Positions 10,222-37,855 of a DNA stretch of 64,000 nucleotides are shown piece by piece. The notes beneath the pieces are model-generated. The model was not told the DNA's origin. It made no database searches and saw only the letters and a program-made list of their open reading frames with translations. This stretch comes from Candidatus Latescibacterota bacterium (GTDB lineage: Bacteria; Latescibacterota; UBA2968). How positions within the stretch are numbered: position 1 is the stretch's first letter; each line of letters starts with the position of its first letter. The stretch covers positions 800,001-864,000 of the forward strand of contig OZ241986.1 of the NCBI GenBank assembly GCA_965204375.1, given 5' to 3'. Both the position numbers and the translations under genes were made by a program.

Positions 10222-10406
10222 TATAAGATTGAAAATAAATACCTTACAAGAAACATTGCTTGATGCTAAATTGAAAACCAGCTATATTCTCTTACGTTTC
10301 ATTAGAAATAAACTACTGGTGTTTTGTTTCATGCATTGGCTTAAGATCCCTTAGCTATTTTAAACCGCCCAAACCGAGGAGAAATCATGTTGCGAGTCAG
10401 CGACCC
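10222..10406 (+). repeat. promoter-leader module type 1, copy A
   Basis: 185 bp, about 91% identical to 17650-17833 by manual alignment; includes promoter, SD and the first 20 coding nt (MLRVSDP). Confidence 0.97.
10260..10288 (+). promoter_or_regulatory. sigma70-type promoter
   Basis: TTGATG-17 nt-TATATT, identical in the second copy at 17688-17716. Confidence 0.75.
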
Positions 10407-12000
10407 CGACCTGATCGCCCACTGGCCGTTCCGGGAAAACCTGAAAGACCATTCTGAAAGCGGCCTGTCCATCCAAAATCACGGTGTTGAAATCGGGGAA
10501 TCAGGCGGACAAAGAAGCGCCCAATTCAACGGGGCGGAAACCTTTCTGGAAGTTCCCTGCGATCTGTCTATAGGGACAGGCGATTTTTCATGCGCCGGAT
10601 GGATCTACACGGAAGAAACCGAAGTGGTCGGCGATATTCTCAGCCAATTCGATCCGAAAACCCGCCATGGATGGCAGATATCGGTCCTCACCAATACCGG
10701 AATGACTTCCACCGCTCAATCGAATTACCGCAACCTCCACTTCGGCATCGACAACGGGCATCTCGGGGCATGGACGGATTGCGGGCGTCCCGGTCAGGCG
10801 GTCAAAATATCTGCACTTTCGACAATAGGTGGACACCTGTATGCCGGCACCTTCGAGAATGGCAAAGAAGAGGTCGGTCACCTGTGGCGCTACGAGGGGG
10901 AAGAACGCTGGACCGACCTGGGCAATCCAGTCGGATGCAACTCCGTCAACGCCGTTGTCGAATTTCAAGGTGCGCTCTATTGCGCCCTCGGTCGGTATAA
11001 TTCCAGCGGCTCCGCCATGGGCGATCCCCTGAACACCACACCCGGCGGCCAGGTCTATCGGGTCGATGCCAACGGCCAATGGACCTTCTGCGGGCATCCA
11101 GGCATCGAAGACGCCACGCCCGAAGAAACACCCACCACGGGACATAACACGGGCAAAGCCGATAACGCCACCGCCCTCACGGTCTATCAGGGTCGGCTCT
11201 ACGCTACCAGCCTCTATCGCGAGGGCGCCTTTGTCTATGATGGCGGCACCACCTGGACGCCCATAGGTCCAGACGTGCGGCTGATGAGTTTCACCGTCTA
11301 TCGGGGCCGGCTCTACACCCTCGTCAACGGCGGCCCGGTTCTTCGCTACGAAGGCAACGCCGAATGGACCGACTGCGGTTGTCCCGAAACTTCCACCCAG
11401 ACCTACTCGGCGGTCACTTTCAAGGGCCAGCTCTATGTCGGCACCTGGCCTCAGGGAGAAGTCTATCGATATGACGGCAACACGACCTGGACCTGTCTGG
11501 GTAGGGCAGGGTACGAACGTGAAATCATGGCCATGGGACTTTACAACGGCAAAGTCTATATCGGCTCGCTCCCAATGGCCAATGTCTGGCGGATGGACGG
11601 CAATCGGTTCACATTCTTAGAGTCTCTGGACCGCACGTCCGCGCCCCTGCGGCGGGTCTGGTCCATGGCCGTTTATCAGGGCCGCCTCTATGCCGGCACC
11701 TTGCCGTCTGGACATGTCTATTCGGTCGAAGCCGGAAAAGTTGCCACTTGGGACCACACATTTCCCGAAGGATGGCGACACGTAGCCGCCGTCAAGCAAG
11801 GCGGCATTCTGACCCTGTACGTCGATGGAACCCCCGTCGCTACAACAGACAGCTTCAATCCAAAACGCTACGATCTCAACCCCAACTGTCCTCTCTTAAT
11901 CGGCTTTGGTGCCCACGACTATTTCAAAGGCGCCCTGCGAGACATCCGTATCTATCGTCGGGGTCTCACACAACTGGAAATCCAGAACCTCGCCAGATGA
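10387..12000 (+). CDS. LamG/concanavalin-like domain protein with inserted beta-propeller
   Basis: LIAHWPF...AQFNG...FSCAGWI at the N-terminus; WRHVAAV...LYVDG...FKGALRDIRIYRRGLT at the C-terminus; repeated LYAGT/VYRYDG..W blades between. Confidence 0.85.
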   Translation: MLRVSDPDLIAHWPFRENLKDHSESGLSIQNHGVEIGESGGQRSAQFNGAETFLEVPCDLSIGTGDFSCAGWIYTEETEVVGDILSQFDPKTRHGWQISVLTNTGMTSTAQSNYRNLHFGIDNGHLGAWTDCGRPGQAVKISALSTIGGHLYAGTFENGKEEVGHLWRYEGEERWTDLGNPVGCNSVNAVVEFQGALYCALGRYNSSGSAMGDPLNTTPGGQVYRVDANGQWTFCGHPGIEDATPEETPTTGHNTGKADNATALTVYQGRLYATSLYREGAFVYDGGTTWTPIGPDVRLMSFTVYRGRLYTLVNGGPVLRYEGNAEWTDCGCPETSTQTYSAVTFKGQLYVGTWPQGEVYRYDGNTTWTCLGRAGYEREIMAMGLYNGKVYIGSLPMANVWRMDGNRFTFLESLDRTSAPLRRVWSMAVYQGRLYAGTLPSGHVYSVEAGKVATWDHTFPEGWRHVAAVKQGGILTLYVDGTPVATTDSFNPKRYDLNPNCPLLIGFGAHDYFKGALRDIRIYRRGLTQLEIQNLAR

Positions 12001-12012
12001 CCGCCGAGGGAA

Positions 12013-12423: not shown

Positions 12424-12487
12424 GATTACCCCTATGCAAAGATAGGTTTGGTTTTTCTGCGAACCCGCATAGAAAGGCCATTTTGAA

Positions 12488-13012
12488 TTACGTTTGAAGC
12501 CTTTGAAAGGCTTTAAGAGTTGACGGATCAGTGACTATTTTCCTTGCGGCTTCAATCGTCAACCATTTGGCGGCATAGAATTCCTGCAGGTCAATATTGA
12601 AATTACTTCCATCTGTAAGAAGCAAATACCAGATGTCATAATGAGAGTGACAGGGTTCCACAGGATTTTCTATTGGTGTAATGGTAAGCAAAAACGGTTG
12701 TGGTTCGGATTTGAAAAAGTTCCATATTCCCAATTCTTCACCTATCTCACGGTTCAAAGCTGCCCAAAGCGTCTCATCTTTATCTATATGACCACCGGGA
12801 GAAAGCCAAAGGCCAGACTTTTTATGGTGGATAATAAATACCTTTTTACTCTGGGAATCATAGGGCAGAAAATAGACACAAAAATGGGTCTCCGGATTTT
12901 CATCTCGCGTTGGTTTTCCTTCTTTAACTCTTTGTTTATAGCGATCATAGGTTTCCCCCTTGTCACATATATCGCGATCGATAACTTTTGCAATTGATTC
13001 TTGTGTTTTCAT
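12488..13012 (-). CDS. NUDIX hydrolase
   Basis: PGGHIDKDETLWAALNREIGEELG Nudix box; AT-richer than neighbours. Confidence 0.9.
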   Translation of the reverse strand: MKTQESIAKVIDRDICDKGETYDRYKQRVKEGKPTRDENPETHFCVYFLPYDSQSKKVFIIHHKKSGLWLSPGGHIDKDETLWAALNREIGEELGIWNFFKSEPQPFLLTITPIENPVEPCHSHYDIWYLLLTDGSNFNIDLQEFYAAKWLTIEAARKIVTDPSTLKAFQRLQT

Positions 13013-13065
13013 ATTCGCTTCTTCACCTTACCGGCTGGCGGGGGAGGGACTCTGATTCTCAGACT

Positions 13066-15048
13066 TTAACGTTGCTCCGACGACTTTATTCGCTTCACGA
13101 CGGGAGCTCTCTTCCTTGGAGGATAATCTGGGTGTAACCCGGCCATTCGCGGCGTCTGGGGACGGATCGGTCCCCAGTTGATCGCATAGGGGTGATTCTT
13201 ACAGAGTTGCTCGATCTTTTCCCAGGCGGCGAGTACGTTCGCCTGTTCGCTTTTGTCTCCGTTCCAATACCGGGTCATGCCTGCGCGAATGTCGATCATG
13301 TGGCGGGTGTGATCCAGGCCTATGCGGACGAAATCGATCCGCGCCCCGAATCGCTCCGGTTCGTCCGCAACCTTGCGTGACGCCTGGTCGAGGAGCGCGT
13401 AAGCGCGGTCGAAGAACGCCTTGTCATAGACATCCGGGTATGCTCGTTCACTTGCCCACCAAAAGATGTTGCGCGTCTCCTCCATCAGATTCCAATAGGT
13501 CTCGAGTTCCGTGGCTGCTGGGCCGAATGCACGTTGATAGTAATTCTGTAGAATCGCTTGCCCATCCTGCGACGGATTCCACAAGAGATGCGCCATGAGA
13601 TAGTATTGTGGTCCGTGCGTTGCCCAGTGTTCCCATACCATATCGACAAAGATGCCCATCGCTTTTTCGCCGATCAGTTTGAAGTCCTCGGTTGTTTGTA
13701 TGAAAGACACATCCGGCTGTCCCTGAGGCCAGCCCGCAGGGTCACCGACATTGGGTCGCCACATCATGTGCTTCGCGACCTTCGACCACGCGATGTATTG
13801 CTCTTTGTGTGTGGAACCCCTGGTCGAACCACGGTCGATCAGGCCGTCCCGATTGAGGAAATTCGCCACGCTTGCCACAATGACATTCTCTGCCGGAATT
13901 TCGCGAATCGGAGCAGGCCGGGAATGCCCGTAGGCCAGCATCATGACATAGTAGTCTCGATCCGGATAGCGCTGCTTGAGTAGCCGCGCACATGTGTTGG
14001 CAAACCGGACGTGCCGGTCGGATAGTGCGGGCAGTTTCTGCGTGGTCCCTTTCCAGTGAAACGAACGGAGCTCGCCATCCGGATGGTCCCAGGCGCGACA
14101 GGGCTCACAAACACAATGTCCGCTAGCCCAGCCGTCGTTAGGCGATGCATTGAAGACGCGTTGATTTGGGTTCTGTTTTAGTGCTTCCTCGACATCCGCG
14201 AGCCATTGCTGCGGCACCTCCGGATTCGATTGGCAGAGCTTGGCGTTTTTGGGTTGTGGAAATCCGCTCCGCGTTCCGTCAGGCTGAAGGGCGAAGTATT
14301 CGGGGTTTGTTTCGTGAAATCGGTCCCACCAGTCGCGGAATCCATGCCCCCCTTCCATTTCGAGGGAACCCAACTGCAGCCGTTGACGACGTGTCCACGT
14401 CTGGGATCGACCGTATGATCCCCCGGGCGCCAGTCTGGAGTAACTGAACAGTCCGGCCCGGAAACGAAGACTGGGATGGTAGCGATACCTGAAGGTCGCG
14501 AAGCGGATGGATTCCTGCGGGACGATATCCTCGCCGAGATCACCAGGCCAGAGCCAACGCACGCCGAGTCGATCGTGCAGAAACGTATAGATCGCATTTA
14601 CAGTCCCATACTCTTGCTGGATTCCCTCGATCCGGTTCCTTTTGAACTGTACAATCATCTGGGTGGGATCCCAACGGTCTCGCCCCGCGATTACGAGGTG
14701 CTTTTCGCTCGCCGCGATGACGATTTCCTCGGGGTGTTGGAAGTCGAAGTCGATATCTGGAAACAGCGCATCAAGCGCCGGTTGGTAACCCACCCAGATG
14801 GCCCGATCTGGGAGTTGGCGGGGTGGACCGTCGATCCATTCGGGTCGCGTGCCACAGGTTTTCTCGATGTAATCGGCAAGATCAATCGCGGCTTCGCGCG
14901 TGAATGGTGGTGCATCTGGAAAGAGGATCAGCGGTGCCGGTTTGATCCCGGCTTTTTTATCGACGAGGGTAAACTCGGCGGTATCGGCTGCTGAAATCGA
15001 GGTTAGCACGATGGAAACGGTGCGGAGCAGCTTGATTTTTTTTAACAT
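13066..15048 (-). CDS. DUF4838 domain protein (putative secreted glycoside hydrolase-like)
   Basis: Signal-like N-terminus; GTVNAIYTFLHDRLGVRWLWPG; PEYFAL..DG.R; LCQSNPEV; SPNDG...CVCEPC. Confidence 0.85.
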   Translation of the reverse strand: MLKKIKLLRTVSIVLTSISAADTAEFTLVDKKAGIKPAPLILFPDAPPFTREAAIDLADYIEKTCGTRPEWIDGPPRQLPDRAIWVGYQPALDALFPDIDFDFQHPEEIVIAASEKHLVIAGRDRWDPTQMIVQFKRNRIEGIQQEYGTVNAIYTFLHDRLGVRWLWPGDLGEDIVPQESIRFATFRYRYHPSLRFRAGLFSYSRLAPGGSYGRSQTWTRRQRLQLGSLEMEGGHGFRDWWDRFHETNPEYFALQPDGTRSGFPQPKNAKLCQSNPEVPQQWLADVEEALKQNPNQRVFNASPNDGWASGHCVCEPCRAWDHPDGELRSFHWKGTTQKLPALSDRHVRFANTCARLLKQRYPDRDYYVMMLAYGHSRPAPIREIPAENVIVASVANFLNRDGLIDRGSTRGSTHKEQYIAWSKVAKHMMWRPNVGDPAGWPQGQPDVSFIQTTEDFKLIGEKAMGIFVDMVWEHWATHGPQYYLMAHLLWNPSQDGQAILQNYYQRAFGPAATELETYWNLMEETRNIFWWASERAYPDVYDKAFFDRAYALLDQASRKVADEPERFGARIDFVRIGLDHTRHMIDIRAGMTRYWNGDKSEQANVLAAWEKIEQLCKNHPYAINWGPIRPQTPRMAGLHPDYPPRKRAPVVKRIKSSEQR

Positions 15049-15068
15049 GTTTCATTCCTTGATAGGGG

Positions 15069-15084
15069 TGACAGATACCTGTCA
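15069..15084. promoter_or_regulatory. candidate operator palindrome upstream of the DUF4838 gene
   Basis: TGACAG-ATAC-CTGTCA, about 20 nt upstream of the start codon. Confidence 0.4.
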
Positions 15085-15210
15085 AGCTATTGTAATAAAC
15101 TTCCTCAGTTTCCTTAGACCCATTTGTCCCGACGCAAGAGGAATACATACCGTTCAGGCAACATGCGGTTGGCAAATTCGCCTCTGCTCGGTCCGGGTGG
15201 TACTCGCTCT

Positions 15211-15759
15211 TCAGTCCGTATTTTGCCTGGACTCAAATTCTGCGCGCAAAATCCCGAATAAGAGCCTGTCCCAACGTCGGTTGGACCAGTATATTGCCTC
15301 GCGCTCGCACCCTTCCTGAGTAAACCCGAGCTTTTCAAGGACTCGGATGGCACCCGTATTATTGGAGGCTGTCACAGCCGAAATCCTGTACAGGTCCAAA
15401 TGCTCAAATCCGAATCGAAGGATTACCAGTGCGGCATCTGTGCAGTACCCTTTACCTCTGTCCCTCCTGCGGGCAATACCAGCACCGAGGCTGGCGGTGC
15501 GATTTCTCAAGTCGATTTCCGACAACTGAATATCGCCGAGGAGATTTCCATCTGGACTGAAGATGCCCAGATAAATTTGACTCTTGCCTTGTTGCTCCTG
15601 GATTTCCTCGAACCATTTGTCCGAACCCTCGATTGAATGACCAGGTCTGACTGGTTCAGTCGGAATTGGCTCCTCGAGTTCATAATGTTCCCAAAGGGTG
15701 CGGCAATGCTCGCGTTCCATAGTTCTTAAAACCACTTTTTCACCACGTAATTCGATCAT
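15211..15759 (-). CDS. GNAT acetyltransferase, RimJ/RimL family
   Basis: Start reassigned to MIELRGEKVVLR; RGKGYCTDA; N.GAIRVLEKLGFTQEG. Confidence 0.9.
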   Translation of the reverse strand: MIELRGEKVVLRTMEREHCRTLWEHYELEEPIPTEPVRPGHSIEGSDKWFEEIQEQQGKSQIYLGIFSPDGNLLGDIQLSEIDLRNRTASLGAGIARRRDRGKGYCTDAALVILRFGFEHLDLYRISAVTASNNTGAIRVLEKLGFTQEGCEREAIYWSNRRWDRLLFGILRAEFESRQNTD

Positions 15760-16003
15760 GAGAGGGACTTTCGATAATGAAATATGATTCAGCCTCACAG
15801 GTCCTTTGAAAAAGCGCCCAACTGGCATGGATTAACCCTACGCGAAATTCCTTATCTTCCCAGCCAAGGGTATCGAAGAGGACTTCCTTAATGCCATCTT
15901 TGCTAAGAAAGGGGAGACGAAGTTGCTTAGCCAGTTTTCTTCCTAATGTTGTTTTGCCAGTACACGGAGCACCGTTAATAATAATAAGCAAAGATTTTGT
16001 CAT
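15740..16003 (-). pseudogene. 5' fragment of an AAA_33-like P-loop kinase
   Basis: IIINGAPCTGKTTLGRKLA...SKDGIKE; similarity breaks after FIIES, where the GNAT gene begins. Confidence 0.8.
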
Positions 16004-16135: not shown

Positions 16136-16681
16136 CTATGAGATAGTCTGTGCAATTCGAATAGAGCCTTCCAAAAGAATCTCTCTGTGTTCGTCTTTTC
16201 TCTCGGTTCTCCAGTATTCTCGTGCCCTCTCAAACATTGATCCGAGGGTTTCAGACTCTTCAAAATAGCTTATGAGATCCATATTCGCAGCAAACACACG
16301 AGAGCACTCAACAATCTCAACTTCGTAGAGTTCAGCATCTGCTCTTTTCGAATTGAACCGTCTGGCAACACGCTCGTCTGTCCAGAGGAAGAGGCAGTCA
16401 AATCGACTTGATCTATATGGAAACTCTCTGAGGCGAACCGTCTCCCAGGCGACTTCCAACAGGACACTTCCCGTTGCGGCCGCATCTGGAACCGTCACGG
16501 TGAGGGGATTGGTTTGCACTTCGATTAGGGTTTGGCGTATCAGATGGTCTTGAAAGTTCCCCGGCTTCACAAGGGTCCCAGGGGAAAGCCCGGACTTTGC
16601 TGACCAAAACAGTAGAGATCCCCGACCAATATCAAGATCCCTTGTGTGGGATGCCTCCCTATAGTGGTTTGGATTTGCCAC
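16136..16681 (-). CDS. DUF2441-like protein
   Basis: E.AWETVRLREFPYRSSRFDCLFL...AREYW....EILLEG resembles the recalled DUF2441 pattern. Confidence 0.65.
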   Translation of the reverse strand: MANPNHYREASHTRDLDIGRGSLLFWSAKSGLSPGTLVKPGNFQDHLIRQTLIEVQTNPLTVTVPDAAATGSVLLEVAWETVRLREFPYRSSRFDCLFLWTDERVARRFNSKRADAELYEVEIVECSRVFAANMDLISYFEESETLGSMFERAREYWRTERKDEHREILLEGSIRIAQTIS

Positions 16682-16823: not shown

Positions 16824-16829
16824 CTTTGT

Positions 16830-17615
16830 TCACTTCTTTCGAGCGAGCCAAATCTGTTCACCTCCATAAAGATAAGGACTCCGATGAAAGTTTCCATACA
16901 ATTCCTGAATCTGATATCCACACAATTCTAGAAGATGCTGCATTTCGTTCTTATAGATGTGTCGTGTCTTACCGACATTATGAATCCTTGAAATTGTCTC
17001 GCCAGATTTGCTGATTTCTTCATAAGTATAATGCCATTCTGAAATTTGGGTCTCAAGGTCACATTTCCGACTTCCCCAAAGAATAACACGATTTCCCGTC
17101 TCTGGATGATTTAACTCTTGTAGTTTTTTTACTGCTGTACCTCCACCAGATGCGGAGACAAGCTCATCCAAACTGGGATCACCATTATGTATTATCAGAA
17201 GTCCATTATCTAAAAGATGTTCATTGATGCACAAAAGGGCCTTTCTTTGGTCTTCTGGTGTTAAGATGTGATGGAAAGCTCTGTAGGGAATCAAGATGGC
17301 GTTGAATCGGTTATTTAGCGAAAAATCACGCATGTCGCCTGCAACGAGGTTTATACGCTCCTGAACTTCATTCCTCAGCTTTGAGACATTTTCTTTCGCT
17401 AACTCAAGCATCTCAGAAGATGGCTCAAGTCCAAAAACATCTAAACCGGATTCAGCTATTGGGATCAGCACTCGCCCTGTTCCACATCCGAGTTCCAAAA
17501 CGGGGCTTCCCGCATTCTGGACTTCTCGAATATAAAATTCTATATCATCTTTTGTTTTCAATGCGTCTTCTCGAGCATCATAGAGTTTAGCTCTGATACC
17601 TTGGTAACCTTCCAT
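16830..17615 (-). CDS. class I SAM-dependent methyltransferase
   Basis: VLELGCGTGR, GDMRDF; same family as 3748 and 12013. Confidence 0.9.
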   Translation of the reverse strand: MEGYQGIRAKLYDAREDALKTKDDIEFYIREVQNAGSPVLELGCGTGRVLIPIAESGLDVFGLEPSSEMLELAKENVSKLRNEVQERINLVAGDMRDFSLNNRFNAILIPYRAFHHILTPEDQRKALLCINEHLLDNGLLIIHNGDPSLDELVSASGGGTAVKKLQELNHPETGNRVILWGSRKCDLETQISEWHYTYEEISKSGETISRIHNVGKTRHIYKNEMQHLLELCGYQIQELYGNFHRSPYLYGGEQIWLARKK

Positions 17616-17649: not shown

Positions 17650-17833
17650 TATAAGATTGAAAATAAATACCTTACAAGAAACATCGCTTGATGCTAAATT
17701 GAAAACCAGCTATATTCCCTTATATCTCATTAGAGATAGACTACTATCGTTTTGTTTCATGATTGGCTTAAGAGTCCTCAGCTATTTTTAACCGCTCAAA
17801 CCGAGGAGAAATCATGTTGCGAGTCAGCGACCC
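17650..17833 (+). repeat. promoter-leader module type 1, copy B
   Basis: About 91% identical to 10222-10406; identity ends abruptly after ATGTTGCGAGTCAGCGACCC. Confidence 0.97.
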
Positions 17834-22065: not shown

Positions 22066-22099
22066 TGCATTGTGTCCAGGTTTTTAGAGATTTAGTTCT

Positions 22100-23080: not shown

Positions 23081-23104
23081 TTTCGATCTCCTTTAATAAA
23101 TCGC

Positions 23105-24712: not shown

Positions 24713-24731
24713 ATATTCCTCCTGTTGGACA

Positions 24732-27545: not shown

Positions 27546-27551
27546 AATCCT

Positions 27552-30075: not shown

Positions 30076-30156
30076 AGCTCAGATCTCCTATTTTGAATGT
30101 TCAAGAAATCCACACTGTTTTGTATTCGAACCATCTTCCTTCTGTTGAAACGCTAC

Positions 30157-31566
30157 TTAAAGCGTCATCGCATTCCACGGTTGTGTCGGATAATCCACCC
30201 ACTGTTTTGATCCGCGCTCAAACGCCCACCGATACTCAGCGATTGCGCCTGCTTGTAGTTCTGCAATTCGCGGTGAATGTGCCGGGTCATTTGCCAAATT
30301 CACAAACTCATACGGGTCTTCAGCAATGTGATAAAGCTCTGGTCCATAAGGTCCATGAATATATTTCCACTCCTGCGTGCGAATGCTCAGGCTCAAATCT
30401 CGCGGATACTGTAACTCCGTAATCGCCACCTTCCGTTCACGTTCACGACCTTCAACCAGCGCCTTCAAACTCATGCCGGGTAAATGCACGGGAATATCCA
30501 TTCCCGCAAAATCGAATGCTGTAGGTAGTACGTCCAATAGATTCACAAGTGAATCGCTCACAAAACCCGTTTGAAATCTCTTTGGCGGTTTCACAATGAA
30601 TGGGATGCGAATGGCCTGTTCGTAGAGATTGTATTTCGAAAATGCGGTCACGCCTCGCGATCCCAACAGTTCACCGTGGTCAGAAAGAAAAATGATCAGC
30701 GTGTCATCGTACAATCCATTGCGATCCAGGGCGTTTATCACTTGCTGATGGCATCGGTCGCAGGCCGTGACAAAAGCCATGTAATTTGCAATCGCATCTC
30801 GTAGTTCTTCTCGCTCTAATCCGACAAAATTGGGATAGGCATTCCGATCGGGTAAATTATCCGGCGGTTCAGGTGGTAATACAACGTCAGCAGGGTCGTA
30901 TAAATCTGCCAAATTAGCTGGTGTTACATGAGGTGCATGAGGCCCTGACAAACTGCAAATCATGAAAAACGGATTGTCCTTGTTTTCTTCCACAAAGGCA
31001 GCAGCCCGTTCTCCAACCCACCAGTCGCGCGTTTGCTCTAACCTCAAGCTGGTCGTAAATCCCTTAAATGCCGCCGCACAATTGTCTCCGCCCTGACCAA
31101 TCCCACGCGTTTCCCGCTCGCCCATCCCCATCTCTACCCAATCCCGATGTTCCGCCACAAAATGGCTGTCCATACGCTCGCCCGTCTCGTGAAACGGTCC
31201 TGCCCGATGATCAAATCCGTAATAGTTGTCGCGTTTAATAGCCGCCTGATACGGTATTGTATGCATCTTGCCAAAGGCACCCGTTACAAAACCCGCCTGC
31301 CCAAACGCCTTTCCCATTGTCCACTCGGGGATTTGTGCAGGATCCAGTAAATGCCGATTGGAATAAATCCCTGACTGAAATGCATATCGCCCGTGCAACA
31401 TCGAATGGCGACTCGGCAAACACGGGGATACGGCACACGTTGCCTGCGTAAACCGAATGCCCTCCTGAGCCAAACGATCATACGCTGGCGTCTGCAACTC
31501 CGGATAACCCGCACATCCGAGAAAGGCATGCGCGTGTTGATCGTTCATTAAAACCACAACATTCAT
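30157..31566 (-). CDS. Cys-type sulfatase (choline-sulfatase-like)
   Basis: Start MNVVVLMNDQH after AGGAGG; CLPSR; GKMH; SDHGE. Confidence 0.92.
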   Translation of the reverse strand: MNVVVLMNDQHAHAFLGCAGYPELQTPAYDRLAQEGIRFTQATCAVSPCLPSRHSMLHGRYAFQSGIYSNRHLLDPAQIPEWTMGKAFGQAGFVTGAFGKMHTIPYQAAIKRDNYYGFDHRAGPFHETGERMDSHFVAEHRDWVEMGMGERETRGIGQGGDNCAAAFKGFTTSLRLEQTRDWWVGERAAAFVEENKDNPFFMICSLSGPHAPHVTPANLADLYDPADVVLPPEPPDNLPDRNAYPNFVGLEREELRDAIANYMAFVTACDRCHQQVINALDRNGLYDDTLIIFLSDHGELLGSRGVTAFSKYNLYEQAIRIPFIVKPPKRFQTGFVSDSLVNLLDVLPTAFDFAGMDIPVHLPGMSLKALVEGRERERKVAITELQYPRDLSLSIRTQEWKYIHGPYGPELYHIAEDPYEFVNLANDPAHSPRIAELQAGAIAEYRWAFERGSKQWVDYPTQPWNAMTL

Positions 31567-31591
31567 AACCATCCTCCTGAAAGTCGAGCGA

Positions 31592-33061
31592 TCAGTAAAT
31601 ATATCGTACCCGCCTGAACTCACCGAGCATCGGGTCCTTTACGCGTTCCATGTGATCTTGCATATATTGCATCAGCGATTCCTGCAACGCCTTGTGTGTC
31701 TCGAGACCGAAGAGGTTGTGCAGTTCGTGCGGATCGTTTTTGAGATCATAGAGTTCTCCGATATCCGATTGATTAAACACAAACTTGTGTGTCCTGGTGC
31801 GCACCATACGAGACTTGTGCTCCTGAATCTGACCGTTGAACTGACAATACACGCTGTCACGTCCCGTCGGTTCATCCTCTCCCATCAACAGCGAAAGAAT
31901 GCTCTGCGTGTCGGGTACAATATCGGGTTGCAGACCTGCGACTTCCAAAAAACTCGGAAACAGATCCTGTAGATAGACAAATTCGTCGTTCTCCCGGCCC
32001 GGCTGTCGGCATTCGGGATGCGCTGCGATCAGAGGCAGGCGAAAACTCTCCTCATCAAAAAAAGGCCCTTTTTCAAACAACTTGTGTGCTCCCATATTGT
32101 CTCCGTGATCGGTGGAAAATACAACAAGCGTGTTTTCCGCCAGGCCGAGCGTTTCCAACTCGGAAAGCATACGCCCCACCAGATCATCGATCATCGTCAT
32201 ATACCCCCAGTAGCGCGCCGTGATCTCCGCCCATTCGTCCCAGTTGTTGGGGTCAATCCCCCAATAACGAGACACCAGAGTCTGAACATAGGGACGATTC
32301 TCCAGTGTATCACAGAAACTCGGGTCCTCCGGAATTGACTTCGGGTCATACATCGAGTAATACGGTTCCGGCACGATACACGGACTGTGTGGGCCCCAGA
32401 AATTGGTCCAAATAAAAAAGGGATCTTCTTCCTGTGCATACGCCTGCATAAGCTCAGCCGTTTCCGAGGCAACCATGGCTTCGAAATTGTGCTCAATAGT
32501 TCCAGCATGGAGGCCGTGCAATTCCCGATTTCGCTGCCCTGGATTTCCCTGAGCATAGAACGCTTCTATAAGCTCTGGAGGTTCCAGATTCTTCTCGTCC
32601 AAATAGTCCAGGTAGTTCCTCGCAATCTGGGAATCCTGCCGCGCACCGCTCTTGATGCCTGGCATATTGATATTGGATGCGGGATAGCCATATCCTGGGA
32701 AGTCTCGTTTACAGCGAAATCCCCAATCACTCGGATTCTTTTGGTGATCCACGTGCCACTTTCCCGCATATCCCAGGTTGTATCCTGCTCGAGGTAGCTC
32801 TGTCGCGAAATTTGGAAGCGACTGATCCAACTGACCACCGTTGGTTTCAACCCCGGTAATGTGACCGTACCGACCTGTAAATAGCGCGGCTCGGCCAGGC
32901 GCACATGGGATGATAAGCGGAAAAGCATTGTTGAAACGCACGCCCCGGCTTGCCAGGTTGTCAATATGTGGTGTTCTGCACTGGGGGGCACCATAACAAC
33001 CCAGCAGATCCCAGCGCTGTTGATCTGTAAGAATGAGTAGAATATTCAGTTTCTCTTGCAT
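31592..33061 (-). CDS. Cys-type sulfatase
   Basis: Start MQEKLNILLILTDQQR; CAPGR; GKWH; TDHGD. Confidence 0.92.
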   Translation of the reverse strand: MQEKLNILLILTDQQRWDLLGCYGAPQCRTPHIDNLASRGVRFNNAFPLIIPCAPGRAALFTGRYGHITGVETNGGQLDQSLPNFATELPRAGYNLGYAGKWHVDHQKNPSDWGFRCKRDFPGYGYPASNINMPGIKSGARQDSQIARNYLDYLDEKNLEPPELIEAFYAQGNPGQRNRELHGLHAGTIEHNFEAMVASETAELMQAYAQEEDPFFIWTNFWGPHSPCIVPEPYYSMYDPKSIPEDPSFCDTLENRPYVQTLVSRYWGIDPNNWDEWAEITARYWGYMTMIDDLVGRMLSELETLGLAENTLVVFSTDHGDNMGAHKLFEKGPFFDEESFRLPLIAAHPECRQPGRENDEFVYLQDLFPSFLEVAGLQPDIVPDTQSILSLLMGEDEPTGRDSVYCQFNGQIQEHKSRMVRTRTHKFVFNQSDIGELYDLKNDPHELHNLFGLETHKALQESLMQYMQDHMERVKDPMLGEFRRVRYIY

Positions 33062-33083
33062 ACTTGTGTCCTCACAATTTTCT

Positions 33084-33947
33084 CTAACTCGCCATCGCCA
33101 GTACCTGATCTTCATCAATCAGGAATTCTTTCGGTAAATCGAGAGGATGACCATTTTCACACACGGGCAAATAATCCAGATATTTGTTTCCAGGACGGAT
33201 CGCCCGCATCCAGGGCACATCGCGTTTGGCAATAAACGTCCCTGCCAGACCGATGCGTTGTTTGTCTGAACTATTTGGTCCGCTATAGTGCAATGCATTT
33301 TGGTGCCACACCAGAATGTCTCCGGGTTCCATCTCACAGGCCACCGCATCCTGTTCCGGATTATAGCCGTGATCGCGCGGATCCACTTCCGTGAGCTTAT
33401 TGCCCTGCCGCTGGTGTGCTATGCGTCCCAGCTTCTGTGAAAAAGGAATCAACTGTAAGCATCCATTCTCTTTTGTCGCCCGATCAATTGCAATCCAGAA
33501 ATCAAACATCATAGGCTCGTTGGGATCATAGGGGGCAGGTGGCATGTTCCAGGCGGCAGAATCCTGATGCCAGGGAGTAACAGAACCGTGCCTGGGTGGT
33601 TTTAGAAAGAAACCACCGGCGTTTACACAAAAGTCATCCCGTAAGACAGATCGCACCAGCCCGACGGTTCGCGGATTTGAAATCATCTTTTTCCAGAGTG
33701 TCTCATTGTGATACGCCGAACTATTCAAGCGATAAAATCGGTGCAATGGATTCCCGGCATTCGGCCGGTCCTCCTTCACATGCCCAACTCCTAATTGCTC
33801 GTATATGTCGGCGTGTTCGGCAATAAATCGAACGCGTTCTTTGATTATGGGGATATCGTCCTGGTCCAACAATCCCTGAAAGATGAAATATCCCTTGTCC
33901 AGCAATTCCCGTTTCCAATTCTTATCGCGTATCTCGTCTCTTTCCAC
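33084..33947 (-). CDS. PhyH-family Fe(II)/2OG dioxygenase
   Basis: TPWHQD, WIAIDRAT.ENGCL, LHYSGPNSSD..R. Confidence 0.92.
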   Translation of the reverse strand: MERDEIRDKNWKRELLDKGYFIFQGLLDQDDIPIIKERVRFIAEHADIYEQLGVGHVKEDRPNAGNPLHRFYRLNSSAYHNETLWKKMISNPRTVGLVRSVLRDDFCVNAGGFFLKPPRHGSVTPWHQDSAAWNMPPAPYDPNEPMMFDFWIAIDRATKENGCLQLIPFSQKLGRIAHQRQGNKLTEVDPRDHGYNPEQDAVACEMEPGDILVWHQNALHYSGPNSSDKQRIGLAGTFIAKRDVPWMRAIRPGNKYLDYLPVCENGHPLDLPKEFLIDEDQVLAMAS

Positions 33948-33963
33948 AATAGATGTCCTTTGT

Positions 33964-34043
33964 TAATGGCCTAATCCGCCCGCCCATCCTGGTTTTCATC
34001 GGCTGCTCCTTCGTGTTAGAAGAGGGAAATACACCTGACAATA
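33964..34043 (-). repeat. promoter-leader module type 2, downstream (leader) half of the split copy
   Basis: 70/80 identical to 37719-37798; carries SD + ATG AAA ACC. Confidence 0.95.
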
Positions 34044-34069
34044 GGGACAGCATCACTGATGTAGCAAGT

Positions 34070-35107
34070 TCACTGCTTTTCTATGTTCTCCATAGCCTGA
34101 CGGCGGCGATGACGGGCAAGCTCGCGTAGATCGACAACCTCATCTGTCTCATCCACAATTTCACGTCCAATTATCTCTTCAAGCACGTCTTCCAGGGTCA
34201 CCACACCAGCCAATCCACCGTATTCATCGATCACGACAAACAGATGTTGTCTGCGCTCAAGAAACATGCGCAATACCCGATCCAATGTCAGCGTTTCCAC
34301 CACAAAGTGCGCGCCTCGCGAGAGACTTTGAATGGGAATATCTTCGCGACCCTCGGCAGCCGACGACAAAATATCCCGACGGTACACGATCCCAACAACA
34401 TCTTCGGCATCTTCATCTACTATGGGAATGCGACTATACGATGGAACACCAATTTGCAACACCTCATTTACTTTTTGCTGGGCTTGAAGCGAATAAATGA
34501 CCGTGCGCGGTGTCATTATTTCCTGAACTGTTTTCTCTTTTAACAATAGAATATTCTGAATGGCACTGCCTTCTTCTGCATTAATGGTTCCCGCATGTCG
34601 CCCCATATTTACCAATGCTATGAGTTCCTCTGAAGATACGACATGTTCAACTTTACCATGAGATATTAGCCGCGTCACAAATTGGCACAGCCAGATAATC
34701 GGTGCTTGTATCCAGATCAAGATCTGGATGGGATAGGCAATCAAGGACACAAGGTGTCGGGCATAAACCACACCAATTGTCTTTGGAATAATCTCAGAAA
34801 ATAAAAGTATCACCAGGGTAAATACCACTGAAAAATGCGGCAACCACGGCTCACCGAGAACTTCTGCCGCTGCCGCTCCAGCAAGGGCGGCTCCACCCGT
34901 ATGCGCAATTGTATTAAGAGATAGAATACCCGCAATAGGCACATCCACATTTTCTCTAAACTTTTTCAATAACCGGCCAGAAACACTGCCAGTTTTTGCC
35001 AGCGATTCGATATGACCAATAGGAACTGAATACAATGCCGCTTCAAAAAGTGAACACATAAAAGAAAAGAAAACGGCAAAACTCGCAAAAAAAATCAATT
35101 CAAACAT
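34070..35107 (-). CDS. CNNM/DUF21 + CBS-pair membrane protein (CorC/HlyC family)
   Basis: FSFMCSLFEAALYS, SEIIPKTIG, IMTPRT, YSRIPI, VIDEYGGLAGVVTLEDVLEEIIGREIVDETD. Confidence 0.95.
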   Translation of the reverse strand: MFELIFFASFAVFFSFMCSLFEAALYSVPIGHIESLAKTGSVSGRLLKKFRENVDVPIAGILSLNTIAHTGGAALAGAAAAEVLGEPWLPHFSVVFTLVILLFSEIIPKTIGVVYARHLVSLIAYPIQILIWIQAPIIWLCQFVTRLISHGKVEHVVSSEELIALVNMGRHAGTINAEEGSAIQNILLLKEKTVQEIMTPRTVIYSLQAQQKVNEVLQIGVPSYSRIPIVDEDAEDVVGIVYRRDILSSAAEGREDIPIQSLSRGAHFVVETLTLDRVLRMFLERRQHLFVVIDEYGGLAGVVTLEDVLEEIIGREIVDETDEVVDLRELARHRRRQAMENIEKQ

Positions 35108-35150: not shown

Positions 35151-35213
35151 ACAATATAGTTTCCGATACCGGTCATTTCCAGCGTATTTTCTTTATGCCC
35201 AAGAACATCTGAA
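35151..35213 (-). repeat. promoter-leader module type 2, upstream (promoter) half of the split copy
   Basis: 56/63 identical to 37793-37855; contains minus-strand -10 TATATT at 35153-35158. Confidence 0.95.
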
Positions 35214-35272: not shown

Positions 35273-37687
35273 CTATTCATACCGCAAAGCCACCACTGGA
35301 TTTTCTCGTCCGGCTCGAATGGCCTGATAACCGACCGTCACAATCGCGATCAGTAGGACCACTGCTCCGCTGAGTAAAAAGATCCACAGCGACAGATCTG
35401 TTCGATAGGCAAAATGCTCCAGCCAGGACGACATCGCAAAATAAGCCACCGGCCAGGCTATCGCATTGGCCAGCACCACCCACTGCAGAAATGCCTTCGA
35501 AAGCATCAAACTGATATCCCAAACCGAAGCGCCCAGCACCTTCCGAATACCGATCTCCTTCGTTCTCCGTTCCGCCATAAACGAGGATAGCCCCAAAAGC
35601 CCCAGACAAGCGACGAAAATAGCGAGAACAGAAGCCGTTCCCACAGTGCGGCCCAATCGTAACTCTTCTCCGTACATCCGCATCAACCATTCATCTAAAA
35701 AATAATATTGGAATGGGCGCGTGGGCACAAAACGCTTCCATGTCTGCTCAAAAAAATCAAGCGTAGCTCCAATATTTTCAGACCGGACTTTCAAGGAAAG
35801 ATATAAAAAACTCGATGGCTGGACACAGAGCACAATCGGCTCAATTGTTTCGTACAGAGAATCGTAGTGAAAATCTGCAACCACTCCGATCACCGTGCCC
35901 ATTCTTCTCGAAGGCATCATCTCCAGCTTTTTCCCGATCGGATCCATCCATCCCAGCTGCCGGACCGCCGTTTCATTCAATATAAACTCCGGCTGTGGAT
36001 TGCTTTCCAATCCGCTTAAAAAATTTCGCCCTGCTACAAGCGTGATCCCGCAGGTTGAAATAAAATCCGCATCCACCTCCTGAAACCGCATTTTCCAATC
36101 TTCCGATAAACCTTCCGCCCGCCCGCGCTGCCGCTGCCCTCCACCCATCGGACCTCGCCCTCCGGACGCGGTTGCCTGGAGCACCTGGGGATAGCTGAGA
36201 AAAGTTTCCTTCACCTGTTCGTATTGCAAAGTCAAACGCCGATCCGCCGGTTTTTGCAGCGTGCGGTCTGCCCGAAAAATCGGCAGCATCACAATACCCT
36301 CGCGTTCGAATCCCAGCACTTTGCCGCTCACAAAATCCAGCTGTCGGTAAACCACTATCGTCGCAATCATCAGCAAAATAGAAAGTGAAAATTGAAACAC
36401 CACCAGCCCCTGTCTGAACATCTGACCCTTCGTAGAAACCTGTGCCCTGTCCTTTAGTACCGAGACAGGTTGAAAGGCAGAAAGAAAAAAGGCCGGATAA
36501 AGGCCGGACAGCACACCCACCACCAGTGCTATCCCCAAAAGACTCAAAATCAGAGGGAGATCTAACATCTGCAGAAAAATTAGTTGCTTGCTGGACAGTG
36601 ACCTGAAAGCTGGCAAAAGGATCTCCGTCAATCCCACCGAAAGAACCAGCGATAGAATCGCCAGCATTACCGATTCGCCCAGAAACTGTCGGATCAACTG
36701 GTACCTGTCTGCACCCACTGCCTTGCGGATGCCCACCTCAAGAGACCGGTTTGTAGATCGGGCCGTTGCCAGATTCACAAAGTTGATACAGGCAATTGTT
36801 AAAATGAGAAGCCCCGTCAGAGAAACCAAGTATAGCGCTCCGATATTGTCTCCGCGCCAGGGTTCCAGGCGCGGAAAGTCTGTATTGGAATAAAGGTGGA
36901 TACGTCGCAAAGGTTGAAGGTGATATACATTCTGCTTACGCCAGTCCTCGCTTCTATAGCGCCTGACCCAATCCGATAGCTTCTGCTCCAATTCTTCGGG
37001 AGCGACGCCCTGGTTCAGTTCAATATAGGTTTCAAAGAACGCACGTTCCTTCCATTGATCTAAAACATGCTGAATCTGATGGGAAGCTGTTGAAATCAAA
37101 AAATCAAATCTTAAAGACGACTGTCTGGGCAGCCGGACCACCCCGGTAACTCGATAGTCGCCAGTCAGCGATTCCCGGTCTATCGAGATCACTTTGCCCA
37201 ACGGATTGTCGTCTCCAAAATACCTCCGGGCCATCTTTTCGGTCATCACAATAGAGAAGGGAGCTTTCAGAGCTTGATGCCGGTCTCCCCAGACCAGGGG
37301 GAATGGAATCGCGTTTAAAAAATCTTCATCAACAAAGTTGACACTTTCTTTGAACCACTCTCCCTTCCGCTGAATCCAGACGGCCCAGGACCAGGTGTGT
37401 GCAGCCTGCTTCACCTCGGGAAAGTCTCGCCGAAGTGCCCCTGCCAGCGGGCCTGCTGTGACGGGATGGTAAGAAACGGCCCCGTCGTCTGATCGAACCG
37501 CTCGGATTACGCGGTAGATCCGCTCGGTACGTTCGTGAAACCGATCGTAACCCATCTCATGCCGTGCAAATAGCACCGTCAATGTCGCACAGGTCAAACC
37601 GATGGCCAGTCCCAGAATCGTGATCAAAGCATGAAGCCTGTGATTCACTACATTCCGGAAAGCAATGGTAAGGTAGTTCTTAAACAT
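35273..37687 (-). CDS. MacB/FtsX-type ABC transporter permease (duplicated-domain type)
   Basis: MFKNYLTIAFRN, ACINFVNLATARS..R..EVGIRKAVGA, ERRTKEIGIRKVLGAS, NPVVALRYE. Confidence 0.95.
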   Translation of the reverse strand: MFKNYLTIAFRNVVNHRLHALITILGLAIGLTCATLTVLFARHEMGYDRFHERTERIYRVIRAVRSDDGAVSYHPVTAGPLAGALRRDFPEVKQAAHTWSWAVWIQRKGEWFKESVNFVDEDFLNAIPFPLVWGDRHQALKAPFSIVMTEKMARRYFGDDNPLGKVISIDRESLTGDYRVTGVVRLPRQSSLRFDFLISTASHQIQHVLDQWKERAFFETYIELNQGVAPEELEQKLSDWVRRYRSEDWRKQNVYHLQPLRRIHLYSNTDFPRLEPWRGDNIGALYLVSLTGLLILTIACINFVNLATARSTNRSLEVGIRKAVGADRYQLIRQFLGESVMLAILSLVLSVGLTEILLPAFRSLSSKQLIFLQMLDLPLILSLLGIALVVGVLSGLYPAFFLSAFQPVSVLKDRAQVSTKGQMFRQGLVVFQFSLSILLMIATIVVYRQLDFVSGKVLGFEREGIVMLPIFRADRTLQKPADRRLTLQYEQVKETFLSYPQVLQATASGGRGPMGGGQRQRGRAEGLSEDWKMRFQEVDADFISTCGITLVAGRNFLSGLESNPQPEFILNETAVRQLGWMDPIGKKLEMMPSRRMGTVIGVVADFHYDSLYETIEPIVLCVQPSSFLYLSLKVRSENIGATLDFFEQTWKRFVPTRPFQYYFLDEWLMRMYGEELRLGRTVGTASVLAIFVACLGLLGLSSFMAERRTKEIGIRKVLGASVWDISLMLSKAFLQWVVLANAIAWPVAYFAMSSWLEHFAYRTDLSLWIFLLSGAVVLLIAIVTVGYQAIRAGRENPVVALRYE

Positions 37688-37718
37688 GACTCGCTCATCA
37701 TTCTGTTATACGACCATC

Positions 37719-37855
37719 TAATGGCCTAATCAGCCCGTCCATCCCGGTTTTCATAGGCTGTTCCTCCGTGTTAGGGGAGGGAAATACACTTGCCAATATA
37801 GCTTCCGATACCGGTCATTTCCAGCGTATTTTTTCTATGCTCGAGAACATCAGAA
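37719..37855 (-). repeat. promoter-leader module type 2, intact copy
   Basis: Contiguous version of 33964-34043 + 35151-35213; -10 TATATT (37795-37800), SD GGAGGA, mini-ORF 37754-37698. Confidence 0.95.

Follow-up and report, generated by a model that had tools for sequence, protein, structure and literature searches.

Repeated gene leaders in a hypervariable accessory-gene locus of a Candidatus Latescibacterota bacterium are probably scars of segmental duplication and microhomology deletion

Changes of gene order in animal mitochondrial genomes are described by the tandem duplication-random loss (TDRL) model, in which genes change order but not orientation, passing through intermediates that contain duplicated non-coding pieces and pseudogene remnants. 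In homology-facilitated illegitimate recombination, homologous recombination at one side is combined with an illegitimate microhomology joint at the other. In E. coli, promoters have been captured through deletions or tandem duplications, and 5 of 8 events involved 3-12-bp microhomology (Li & Bock 2019, NAR, PMC6614815). Putative mobile promoters have been defined as sequences that lie in the -150 to -50 region of genes with unrelated coding parts and share 80% identity or more over 50 nt or more; such families mostly have two members, about 92% identical, and are not explained by any known mechanism (Nijveen, Matus-Garcia & van Passel 2012, PMC3575422).

We analysed a stretch of 64,000 nucleotides (the window) of a 6.34-Mb genome (G000). 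It was compared with 9 complete congeners, which makes ten species; a wider genus set comprised 21 genomes. Gene coordinates (Table 1) are those of our own ORF calls, on which the breakpoint and border counts depend.

A row of single-gene units

At about 9.4-20.6 kb, the window contains a hypervariable, tight row of about 20 units, each with one gene (GNATs, methyltransferases, NUDIX, LigT, LamG and others). As far as the sequences tell, the locus as a whole is densely packed with single genes, most of them in the same orientation, that are predicted to encode small-molecule-modifying enzymes and transporters. The order and content of the units differed in every species, while their orientation was always kept, and gene-sized blocks that were 88-96% identical between congeners were permuted beside a 13-kb control block, which was colinear and 92-95% identical in relatives, with indels as the only differences. 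Positions differed along the whole array and not at one end; in an integron, new cassettes enter at the head, where the attI site and a common promoter (Pc) lie. The LigT unit (9406-10003) was placed differently in 8 relatives and occurred twice in G016; the beta-propeller gene sat elsewhere in G010, G006 and G020, and the sulfatase next to the control block in G015, G004 and G006. The LamG gene was the final unit ahead of the conserved block in 9 of 9 relatives.

The NUDIX unit was bordered by its own ATG, which in 8 genomes adjoined no fewer than 5 different upstream contexts. The GNAT unit, found in 4 contexts, was bounded by its stop codon and by a point 7-9 nt upstream of its ATG, while the 3' tail of the DUF4838 gene measured 20 nt or at least 35 nt, depending on the context. 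Gene stubs, pointed out in a preliminary description of this DNA, were indeed present; they derive from a methyltransferase, a kinase and a nucleotidyltransferase. The last retains 48 of 185 residues, matching residues 1-44 and 175-185 of a G016 gene (Pfam Aminoglyc_resit), and the full-length G016 counterpart of the kinase stub carries Pfam AAA_33. By eye, the short recurrent element looks like a leader followed by roughly 16 initial codons of a downstream gene that has been lost. Co-oriented single-gene accessory units that vary in order and content between close relatives recall integron and CALIN arrays (Cury et al. 2016, PMC4889954), and the cargo types resemble those of their cassettes.

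Table 1. Features of the locus (positions in the window; G numbers denote genomes)
Feature	Position	Strand	Remarks
LigT-like 2'-5' RNA ligase family gene, first array unit	9394..9987	-	Pfam 2_5_RNA_ligase2
ANT(2'')-like nucleotidyltransferase remnant, 48 aa	10046..10189	-	in-frame internal deletion
A-left copy 1	10222..10363		intergenic piece with sigma-70-like consensus match
A-right copy 1	10359..10406	+	LamG's own 5' leader, SD, ATG, 7 codons
LamG-domain gene	10387..12000	+	537 aa, Pfam Laminin_G_3
Methyltransferase 5' stub, 136/266 aa	12013..12423	-	91% identity to residues 1-136 of G010 gene
NUDIX unit	12469..13013	-	ORF 12488-13012 plus 19-nt 3' tail; Pfam NUDIX
DUF4838 gene	13066..15048	-	Pfam; movable unit
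Short recurrent element	15115..15209	-	multi-copy in relatives' arrays, single copy in G000
GNAT acetyltransferase unit	15211..15763	-	Pfam Acetyltransf_3
AAA_33 kinase-like 5' stub, 64/196 aa	15809..16003	-	62/64 residues identical to G016 gene
DUF2441 gene	16136..16681	-	Pfam; movable unit
Methyltransferase 'family 29'	16830..17615	-	Pfam; intact left neighbour of A copy 2
Module A copy 2	17650..17833		A-left and A-right with 7 LamG codons
Gene 30	17814..18287	+	157 aa, no Pfam family, in-frame fusion behind LamG leader
Beta-propeller glycoside-hydrolase-like gene, movable	18359..19339	+	weak GH32/GH130 matches
Sulfatase, movable	19378..20580	-	Pfam; right edge of variable zone
Conserved colinear block, internal control	20644..33947	-	decarboxylase, sulfatases, PhyH, others
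BL copy 1	33964..34043	-	SD, ATG, 12-codon stub upstream of PhyH
CNNM/CBS gene	34070..35107	-	Pfam
BR copy 1	35152..35213		short dispersed repeat
MacB/FtsX-type permease	35273..37687	-	Pfam; private to G000 at this locus
BL and BR contiguous (copy 2)	37719..37855		between MacB and katG
Catalase-peroxidase (katG-like), right anchor	37919..40156	+	Pfam peroxidase

Modules A and B

Two repeated modules had been reported in the preliminary description, and both were confirmed. Module A occurs as 10222-10333/10335-10406 and 17650-17761/17762-17833, with 91-93% identity and one 1-nt indel. As had been stated, its identity ends abruptly, after 7 codons (MLRVSDP, + strand), and is followed by the LamG gene or by gene 30. 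A whole-genome search of G000 returned the second copy with E = 1e-69 and no third copy. The two parts of the module meet at a microhomology repeat, TTTAA. The A-right leader preceded LamG in 9 of 10 genomes, and the LamG-leader/gene-30 joint is common to 4 species (G000, G006, G015 and G004); in G015 and G004 the fusion reads MLRVSDPDP, then MVQKY.

A-left has more varied surroundings. On its right stands the LamG 5' end, a LamG stub with gene 30, or a DUF104-like small gene, and on its left, across genomes, about 8 different genes; its start lies at position 1, 11, 49 or 76 according to context. A shortened trace of the 'methyltransferase-29 remnant' context that G010, G007, G015, G004 and G009 have is still present at copy 1, while the adjacency of methyltransferase-29 and A is also found in G016, G006 and G008. 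The A-left of copy 2 (142 nt aligned) was 98% identical to the G002 copy, with which it formed a supported clade, and 90% identical to copy 1. Two-copy arrangements occur in four other complete genomes.

The pieces 10222-10363 and 17650-17788 are 90% identical and lie upstream of LamG and of gene 30, as in putative mobile promoters (PMC3575422). Unlike these, A is not spread over the genome: its 18 copies (in 12 of the 21 genus genomes) all lie within one syntenic locus, which goes against the gene-capture system that had been proposed; its repeat also extends into the coding region, a case filtered out in that survey. Module B does not strictly qualify, since the shared part of BL lies nearer the start codon and covers less than 50 nt of the -150 to -50 span. 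The 'promoter' and '-10 box' of the preliminary description come down to a consensus match: TTGATG-17-TATATT is present in both copies of A, and the region contains 8 such sites compared with 8.5 +/- 2.9 in shuffled sequences. No RNA run was found to contain this DNA.

The left half of module B (BL, 33964-34043 and 37719-37798) is 88% identical between copies, and the right half (BR, 35152-35213 and 37794-37855) 90%; at the break the halves overlap by 5 nt, CAATA. The identity of BL (minus strand) comprises the SD, the ATG and 12 codons, beyond which one copy leads into PhyH and the other into MacB. In the whole-genome search, the halves gave E = 9e-22 and 1e-17. BR is a short dispersed repeat, with further copies elsewhere in G000, among them two partial ones about 180-190 kb away, and in relatives, where it also adjoins katG. 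BL copy 1 spans a 13-nt repeat that marks the site where gene 17 is either found or missing.

One copy of B was thought to have been interrupted by a new gene. The segment between the CAATA copies holds the CNNM/CBS gene, which stands at this place in 6 of 9 relatives and is therefore not new. The join of BL-right and BR is also found in G010, G008 and G018; G018 has no CNNM and the order BL-BR-katG, and G010 carries BR on both flanks of CNNM. The 'interrupted' B is the common arrangement, and MacB with the contiguous B copy the sole one private to G000. MacB was absent at this locus from all 9 relatives, and its closest paralogs share 41-50% amino acid identity with it. Since it has no source in G000 or at the relatives' locus, at least one event was an acquisition, not a loss.

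Joints, breakpoints and repeats

Direct-repeat overlaps of 3-30 nt were found at 34 of 42 distinct indel joints, compared with 6% in a random control. The overlap was at least 10 nt in 10 joints, 6-9 nt in 8, 3-5 nt in 16 and 0-2 nt in 8, while random deletions of the same sizes gave 0-2 nt in 94%, 3-5 nt in 5.9% and 6-9 nt in 0.1%; this contrast is somewhat overstated, because the joint overlaps are BLAST ends, which tolerate mismatches, and the control counts exact matches. The microhomology suspected earlier is thus abundant, as exemplified by TTTAA, CAATA and the 13 nt at the gene-17 site, and overlaps of at least 3 nt are what joints of microhomology-mediated promoter capture look like. 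Neither the joints nor the breakpoint clusters are independent events.

The breakpoints were not anchored at promoters or starts, as the preliminary description had it, since among 52 clusters 17 lay at starts and 18 at stops. They nonetheless favoured gene ends: 33 of 52 were at most 30 nt from a start or stop codon, where 13% were expected, and no more than 6 lay deep in coding sequences, though these make up 89% of the zone. Remnants of both 5' and 3' gene ends occur in the array. Three contexts have, ahead of A-left, 20 nt left over from the 3' end of methyltransferase-29, while the intact 26-29-A order still exists in G016 and G008, and the internal deletions of gene 53 differ between G000, G010 and G018. 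Together with the CNNM/BR variants, these remnants and deletions indicate that several adjacencies arose by deletion. Most new adjacencies trace to deletion of intervening DNA, contrary to the idea that new genes enter and displace older cargo.

The 30 kb of G000 contained 5 families of direct repeats and the loci of the nine relatives 20, some of them 98-100% identical over 300 nt; no inverted family was found in either. With 25 direct and 0 inverted families, the same strand throughout, permuted order, and duplicated pieces and remnants left behind, the array resembles the products of TDRL. It differs from the mitochondrial case, a small organelle genome with essential genes, in that its genes are accessory, so that many are lost altogether and the gene content varies as well.

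Our preferred reading, which we hold to be probable, is that old segmental duplications in the same orientation, accompanied by microhomology deletions, left the repeats as scars in a hypervariable accessory-gene locus. A stretch of a few kb would be duplicated in direct orientation; deletions between short direct repeats (3-30 nt) would then take out redundant or dispensable genes, whole or in part, and selection would retain the intact genes that are still expressed. A putative promoter, leader and first codons retained in front of another gene would amount to promoter capture, sometimes with an in-frame fusion. While the mosaic, the overlaps at joints, the purely direct repeats, the age of the duplications and the origin of several adjacencies by deletion are shown by the sequences, we infer the succession of these steps, the part played by selection and the action of A-left, BL and BR as promoters. 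The duplications are older than the species splits, because the A/gene-30 fusion is common to 4 species and A copy 2 is closer to the G002 copy than to copy 1. Against duplication and loss stand the borders, which are sharper than random deletions give, the NUDIX ATG border with its many contexts and the acquisition of MacB. Selection for intact expressed genes would make surviving joints accumulate at gene borders, and the NUDIX border might be explained by selection and repeated trimming.

Duplication and loss would resemble the E. coli events in that deletion or direct duplication places a new coding region under a resident promoter or leader; the breaks carry short direct repeats, and neither a mobile element nor a recombinase is required (PMC6614815). 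That was a laboratory screen under selection, whereas the events here are natural, old and stacked many-fold, and the promoters putative.

Other explanations

Alternatively, units or blocks may have been imported from related populations by transformation or other transfer, one side being joined by homologous recombination in a shared unit (for example A or BR) and the opposite side by illegitimate joining at microhomology. This corresponds to the 'microhomology' variant of the idea in the preliminary description, with the repeated leader as homology anchor, and we regard it as unlikely. It would fit the closeness of A copy 2 to the G002 copy, and the gene-by-gene composition shifts noted earlier (GC per gene from 0.40 to 0.61 among neighbours). 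It would also fit MacB, which is private to G000 here, without a close paralog, and flanked by two BR copies 90% alike, and the contigs of two other metagenome runs (X22 and X1), which join array units in further combinations. However, a donor arrangement was identified for none of the G000 joints, several adjacencies are accounted for by in-place deletions with remnants, and the divergence of the blocks between species is about that of the conserved block, which fits vertical descent.

A dedicated cassette-shuffling mechanism, moving whole ORFs from start to stop like an integron, with a recombinase elsewhere or a non-canonical site, seems improbable to us. The enrichment of borders at ORF ends would agree with it, as would the recurrence of identical borders in different combinations (in relatives and other metagenomes), the constant orientation, and an integron-typical cargo (GNAT, APH, ANT-like, CPT-like, NUDIX, methyltransferases). 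Yet no integron integrase was found in the 21 genomes above the TIGR02249 cut-off of 265 bits, the best G000 match (88.6 bits) lying 3.4 Mb from the window. There was no integrase, recombinase or transposase in the 46 window ORFs, so that no IntI gene adjoins the array, and no recombinase or transposase in 28 cassette families from relatives. In proxy tests for attC, core pairs (RYYYAAC...GTTRRRY) numbered 0 in 9390-20670 compared with a mean of 0.54 in shuffles, and linkers showed no excess of hairpins (median z -0.13, n = 67); the at least two attC sites of an integron or CALIN were thus missing by these proxies. The absence of a visible attC or integrase, remarked on before, was borne out. 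The linkers had no core in common, any 7-8-mer occurring in at most 12 of 91 linker types. The lack of a transposase in the window and of inverted repeats also sets the locus apart from insertion sequences, MITEs and transposons. Besides lacking an integrase, attC-like sites (by proxy) and palindromic structure, the array differs from integrons and CALIN in linkers often of only 8-30 nt, variable borders (the DUF4838 tail, the A-left start), common remnants of both gene ends, internal deletions and microhomology joints (PMC4889954). What stands of the proposed gene-capture system is the cassette-like shuffling of units and the same leaders before different genes; a shared site, a recombinase and special promoter anchors do not. 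On our best reading, the repeats would not be parts of a dedicated gene-capture machine, and promoter capture would be a by-product of duplication and loss.

That the repeats stem from strain variants collapsed or joined into chimeras during assembly is hardly credible: although the genome comes from a mixed sample, with a contamination estimate of 5.5%, and short-read contigs break at the A repeats, the misassembly that had been named as a possible refutation was largely dispelled by run X19 (which may be the source sample of the assembly and so is not independent support), where a contig of 7,303 nt covers 10377-17679 with 0 differences; no alternative joints were seen in X19 or X21, A is two-copy in four other complete genomes too, and each copy of A lies on its own contig at even depth (28.8 and 27.6, compared with 25.4 beside them).

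Gene-sized blocks in the array

Nucleotides 4001-44000 of the window were compared with the syntenic regions of nine complete congeneric genomes (of 20 congeners, these nine in full), using gene coordinates from our own ORF calls. The central part of the compared region was colinear with the relatives at 92-95% identity, with indels as the sole difference. The variable zone to its left, hereafter the array, could be divided into some 20 blocks of gene size, for each of which the identity to blocks of the relatives was 88-96%; their order differed in every species and they were often missing, while their orientation was always kept. Among the products of the window (46 ORFs scanned) were sulfatases, glycoside hydrolases and PLP enzymes, together with numerous small modifying enzymes. 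The arrays of the relatives contained additional cargo of similar type: further GNATs and methyltransferases, an MFS transporter, a MacB permease, APH, ANT(2'')-like and chloramphenicol-phosphotransferase-like enzymes, an AAA_33 kinase-like gene, PhyH-family dioxygenases and an alpha/beta hydrolase.

The ends of the blocks coincided largely with the ends of genes. Among 52 breakpoint clusters in 9390-20670, which are not independent events, 33 were no more than 30 nt away from a start or stop codon, against an expectation of 13.3% (binomial p ~7e-17), and only 6 were deep inside coding sequence, though 89% of the zone is coding. A preliminary description of this DNA had proposed that fragments are inserted at promoters. 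This was not borne out, since the clusters were shared almost equally between starts (17) and stops (18), indicating that the moving units are genes. The NUDIX unit, for instance, was found in at least five different upstream contexts, which abutted it directly at the ATG.

Positions of the features discussed (window coordinates unless indicated)
Feature	Sequence	Position
Array	window	9.4-20.6 kb
Colinear segment	window	20.6-33.9 kb
Module A, copy A1	window	10222-10406
A-left (copy 1)	window	10222-10363
A-left piece matched outside the genus	window	10222-10290
A-right (copy 1)	window	10359-10406
Span of the single X19 contig	window	10377-17679
Short element	window	16721-16781
Module A, copy A2	window	17650-17833
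Equivalent of the decaying block of G006 and G020	window	23.6-33.8 kb
Module B, split copy, left half (BL)	window	33964-34043
Segment at the CNNM stop	window	34044-34078
CNNM/CBS gene (CNNM)	window	34070-35107
Module B, split copy, right half (BR)	window	35152-35213
Module B, contiguous copy	window	37719-37855
katG	window	37919-40156
Probable defence cluster	window	53653-61538
Second variable zone (L050, L051)	contig C1 of the source genome	1005001-1045000
Partial BR copies	contig C1	near 1.016 and 1.031 Mb
Repeat-rich bin	contig C1	2.30-2.35 Mb
Duplicated LigT-unit stretch	G016 (L030)	1526-1825; 6118-6417

No dedicated machinery was found. None of the 21 genomes of the genus contained an integron integrase scoring above cut-off, and a core-pair scan gave no attC-like core pairs, in agreement with the preliminary description, which had noted that neither was visible. 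That description had also suggested looking for a recombinase and for a core shared by the junctions. No recombinase, integrase or transposase domain was present in the 46 window ORFs, nor any recombinase among 28 cassette families of the relatives' arrays, and no 7-8-mer occurred in more than 12 of 91 distinct linker types, the recurring ones being T-runs or pieces of the left part of module A (A-left). The linkers did not fold more than expected (median z -0.13, n = 67), and the borders of one unit differed between contexts, which counts against a site-specific system. By the definitions of Cury et al. 2016 (PMC4889954), the locus is neither an integron nor a CALIN. An origin of the ORF-precise units as retro-copies of leaderless mRNA was rejected, because their 3' tails are not terminators and their borders vary.

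Composition and history of the repeat modules

Both repeat families of the preliminary description were recovered. The two copies of module A were 91-93% identical, with one 1-nt indel, and the contiguous copy of module B matched the split copy at 88% (BL) and 90% (BR), the halves overlapping by CAATA. The abrupt end of the identity in module A was confirmed: the SD, the ATG and seven codons (MLRVSDP) are followed by unrelated genes, one copy leads into a LamG gene of 537 aa, the other into a gene of 157 aa that has no Pfam family (gene 30). BL comprises, on the minus strand, an SD, an ATG and 12 codons, followed by a PhyH gene in one copy and a MacB/FtsX permease gene in the other. In the one-contig source genome (6,340,849 bases), module A was present in exactly two copies, while module B was found at its places in the window and as two partial BR copies elsewhere.

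Both A copies contain a match to a sigma-70-like consensus (TTGATG-17-TATATT), from which module A may be called a putative promoter; the region contained 8 such sites, as compared with 8.5 +/- 2.9 in shuffled sequences. A search by eye for a sigma-54-type -24/-12 motif gave no fit in A or BR. The window was negative in searches against Rfam (at gathering thresholds) and for tRNAs, which means that neither module is a known RNA or an att site linked to a tRNA. Self-comparison of the whole genome yielded 368 short direct pairs within 30 kb, only 2 of them in the window at that stringency; such pairs are thus not special to this locus. A single 50-kb bin contained 186 of the 368 and probably represents either a repetitive gene or a large array of repeats.

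Module A is a composite of A-left and A-right. A-right is the leader of the LamG gene itself, being found upstream of LamG in 9 of 10 genomes. Of the 21 genomes of the genus, 12 contained A-left, with a total of 18 copies, all within this locus. On the right, 8 copies had the LamG leader (in two cases continuing into gene 30), 7 a DUF104-like small gene and 3 other sequences, the joint being at TTTAA in every case, and on the left were about eight different genes. The fusion with gene 30 reads, in relatives G015 and G004, MLRVSDPDP followed in frame by gene 30's own MVQKY, and the same joint with a 6-nt collapse is found in the source genome and in G006; the fusion is therefore not an event of the source genome. 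Similarly, A2 was 98% identical to the copy of relative G002, with which it formed a supported clade, versus 90% to A1, indicating that the two copies of the source genome are not recent duplicates.

An intact methyltransferase gene (number 29) precedes A2, as it does in G016, G006 and G008, whereas five relatives (G010, G007, G015, G004 and G009) have at this place a 20-nt remnant of its 3' end, of which a trimmed trace remains left of A1. Together with the simple order found in G016 (methyltransferase 26 - 29 - A - LamG), this indicates that the neighbours of A changed largely by deletion of intervening sequence, and not, as had been proposed, because new fragments displaced older cargo.

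The small gene to the right of A-left (seven copies in G007, G015, G004, G006, G008 and G020) starts with MKQTMDAVYENGVFKPL and is only a fragment in some copies; we assume that it resembles a DUF104-type antitoxin. In a neighbouring family of this order, 8 of the 16 genomes had a match of 74-79% to about 70 nt of A-left (query positions 73-140); the intergenic piece must therefore, in part, be much older than the genus.

BL spans a 13-nt repeat, GTTTTCATCGGCT, start codon included, at which 6 of the 9 relatives carry a gene of 383-401 aa (one of them as a 128-aa fragment) that is absent from the source genome. BR, a short dispersed repeat, also occurs at other places of the source genome and in relatives. 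In G010, the right part of BL adjoins BR beside the CNNM stop, and another BR separates CNNM from katG, so that direct BR copies flank CNNM on both sides; the same join at the CNNM stop was found in G008. G018 is devoid of CNNM and shows the order BL-right-BR-katG, like the source genome's copy at 37.7 kb. CNNM occupies this place in 6 of the 9 relatives, and it is therefore not a new gene that interrupted a promoter, as the preliminary description had it. What is private to the source genome here is the MacB gene and the second BL-BR. The best paralogs of this MacB gene in the source genome reach only 41-50% amino-acid identity, and none of the nine relatives compared has a counterpart of it here; its arrival looks like an acquisition.

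The possibility that CAATA is a target-site duplication was rejected, as the insert encodes a CNNM/CBS protein and not a transposase, has no inverted ends and is old at its place, and as the gene is flanked in G010 by BR copies instead. At the CNNM stop, the source genome, G016 and G015 share one 35-nt sequence between CAATA and TTCTATG, which is replaced in G010 (region L029), and by BLAST match also in G008, by an unrelated BR-type sequence of equal length.

Joints, duplications and a probable origin of the mosaic

Most indel joints displayed short overlaps. At 42 distinct but not independent joints in ten regions, the overlap was at least 10 nt in 10, 6-9 nt in 8, 3-5 nt in 16 and 0-2 nt in 8, while random deletions of equal sizes gave 0-2 nt in 94%, 3-5 nt in 5.9% and 6-9 nt in 0.1% of cases, the former figures being derived from mismatch-tolerant BLAST ends and the control from exact matches. 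All repeat families were direct, 5 in the 30 kb of the source genome and 20 in the nine relatives' loci (spacings of 1.2-9.4 kb), with none inverted in either. Some of those in the relatives were 98-100% identical over 300 nt, which indicates that duplication is ongoing. Gene stubs, already mentioned in the preliminary description, were found for both gene ends: 5' stubs of a methyltransferase (136 of 266 aa) and of an AAA_33 kinase-like gene (64 of 196 aa), and 3' fragments, identified by eye, of LigT, GNAT and DUF2441 genes in G020, G009 and G008. The ANT(2'')-like gene has an in-frame internal deletion in the source genome and different deletions in G010 and G018.

The locus most likely works through duplication, short-repeat deletion and selection. 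Direct segmental duplications of a few kb would arise within the array, deletions between short direct repeats would strip redundant or dispensable genes, whole or in part, and selection for intact, expressed genes would leave joints at ORF ends and retain promoter/leader pieces, which would now stand ahead of other genes. While the mosaic, the overlaps, the exclusively direct repeats, the age of the duplications and the derivation of several arrangements by deletion are observed, we infer in which order the events took place, how selection acted and that the retained pieces are promoters. Both routes to promoter capture are described in laboratory work on E. coli, with 3-12-bp microhomology in 5 of 8 events (PMC6614815). 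More than 4,000 families of near-identical upstream sequences preceding unrelated genes, mostly pairs of ~92% identity, have been catalogued (PMC3575422). On this reading, the locus is a clear natural case of accessory genes being re-ordered, lost and re-wired to resident promoters without mobile-element machinery, its intermediates (recent 100%-identical duplicates, gene stubs and joints at 8-30-nt repeats) being kept in ten related genomes; it also illustrates how a capture system can be mimicked by patterns of the type 'same leader, different gene'.

The array may also owe something to exchange between lineages, as suggested by the affinity of A2 with G002, by the MacB gene and by the GC mosaic. 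Another reading is that the genus practises an integron-like, integrase-less shuffling of whole ORFs in a co-oriented detoxification-type array, recombination being aimed at translation start and stop regions by an enzyme yet to be found or by a replication- or transcription-coupled process. It would account for borders that coincide with ORF ends far above chance and recur in new combinations; considering also the searches for recombinases and shared cores described above, we regard it as improbable. If the sharp ORF-level borders did need more than selection, this would suggest a new cassette mechanism outside the groups known to bear integrons.

In G016, a 300-nt stretch of the LigT unit was present twice with 100% identity, 4.6 kb apart, so that direct duplication has occurred very recently within this array; the partner of the second copy had its start codon changed to CTG. 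In G006 and G020 (regions L036/L037 and L040/L041), the sulfatase/aminotransferase/PhyH block, conserved elsewhere, was decaying through four deletions of 0.26-3.3 kb, each between 9-17-nt direct repeats. Three of the four were common to both species, and five genes were truncated.

Metagenome contigs and other variable regions

Contigs of runs X1, X19, X21 and X22 were compared with the window. One metagenome run (X19) contained 99% of the sampled words, and it is perhaps the source sample itself. Over 10377-17679, the window was matched with zero differences by a single 7,303-nt contig of this run, and each A copy had its own contig (depth 28.8 and 27.6, versus 25.4 alongside). No alternative joints were seen in X19 or X21, the data being contigs, in which rare variants and circles are undetectable. 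Contigs of two other runs (X22 and X1) showed the same unit borders joined in other combinations, among them 9398 to 15115, 9997 to 12469 via a GNAT stub, 15152 to 18290, and 19344 back to 13058.

A second variable zone of the source genome has BR and the short element of the window in common with it (two copies of each) and shows large duplications as well as duplicated NUDIX genes; a 16-codon NUDIX stub is fused there ahead of another ORF. One BR lies ~290 nt from a MacB-like C-terminal fragment, to be compared with the BR beside MacB in the window. Two transposase copies in this zone are presumably IS1380-like, judging from their N-terminal sequence. Finally, the probable defence cluster of the window encodes an AAA_21 (AbiEii-like) ATPase, a 1063-aa N6/N4 DNA methylase-domain protein and a 1038-aa ResIII (type III restriction) helicase-domain protein.
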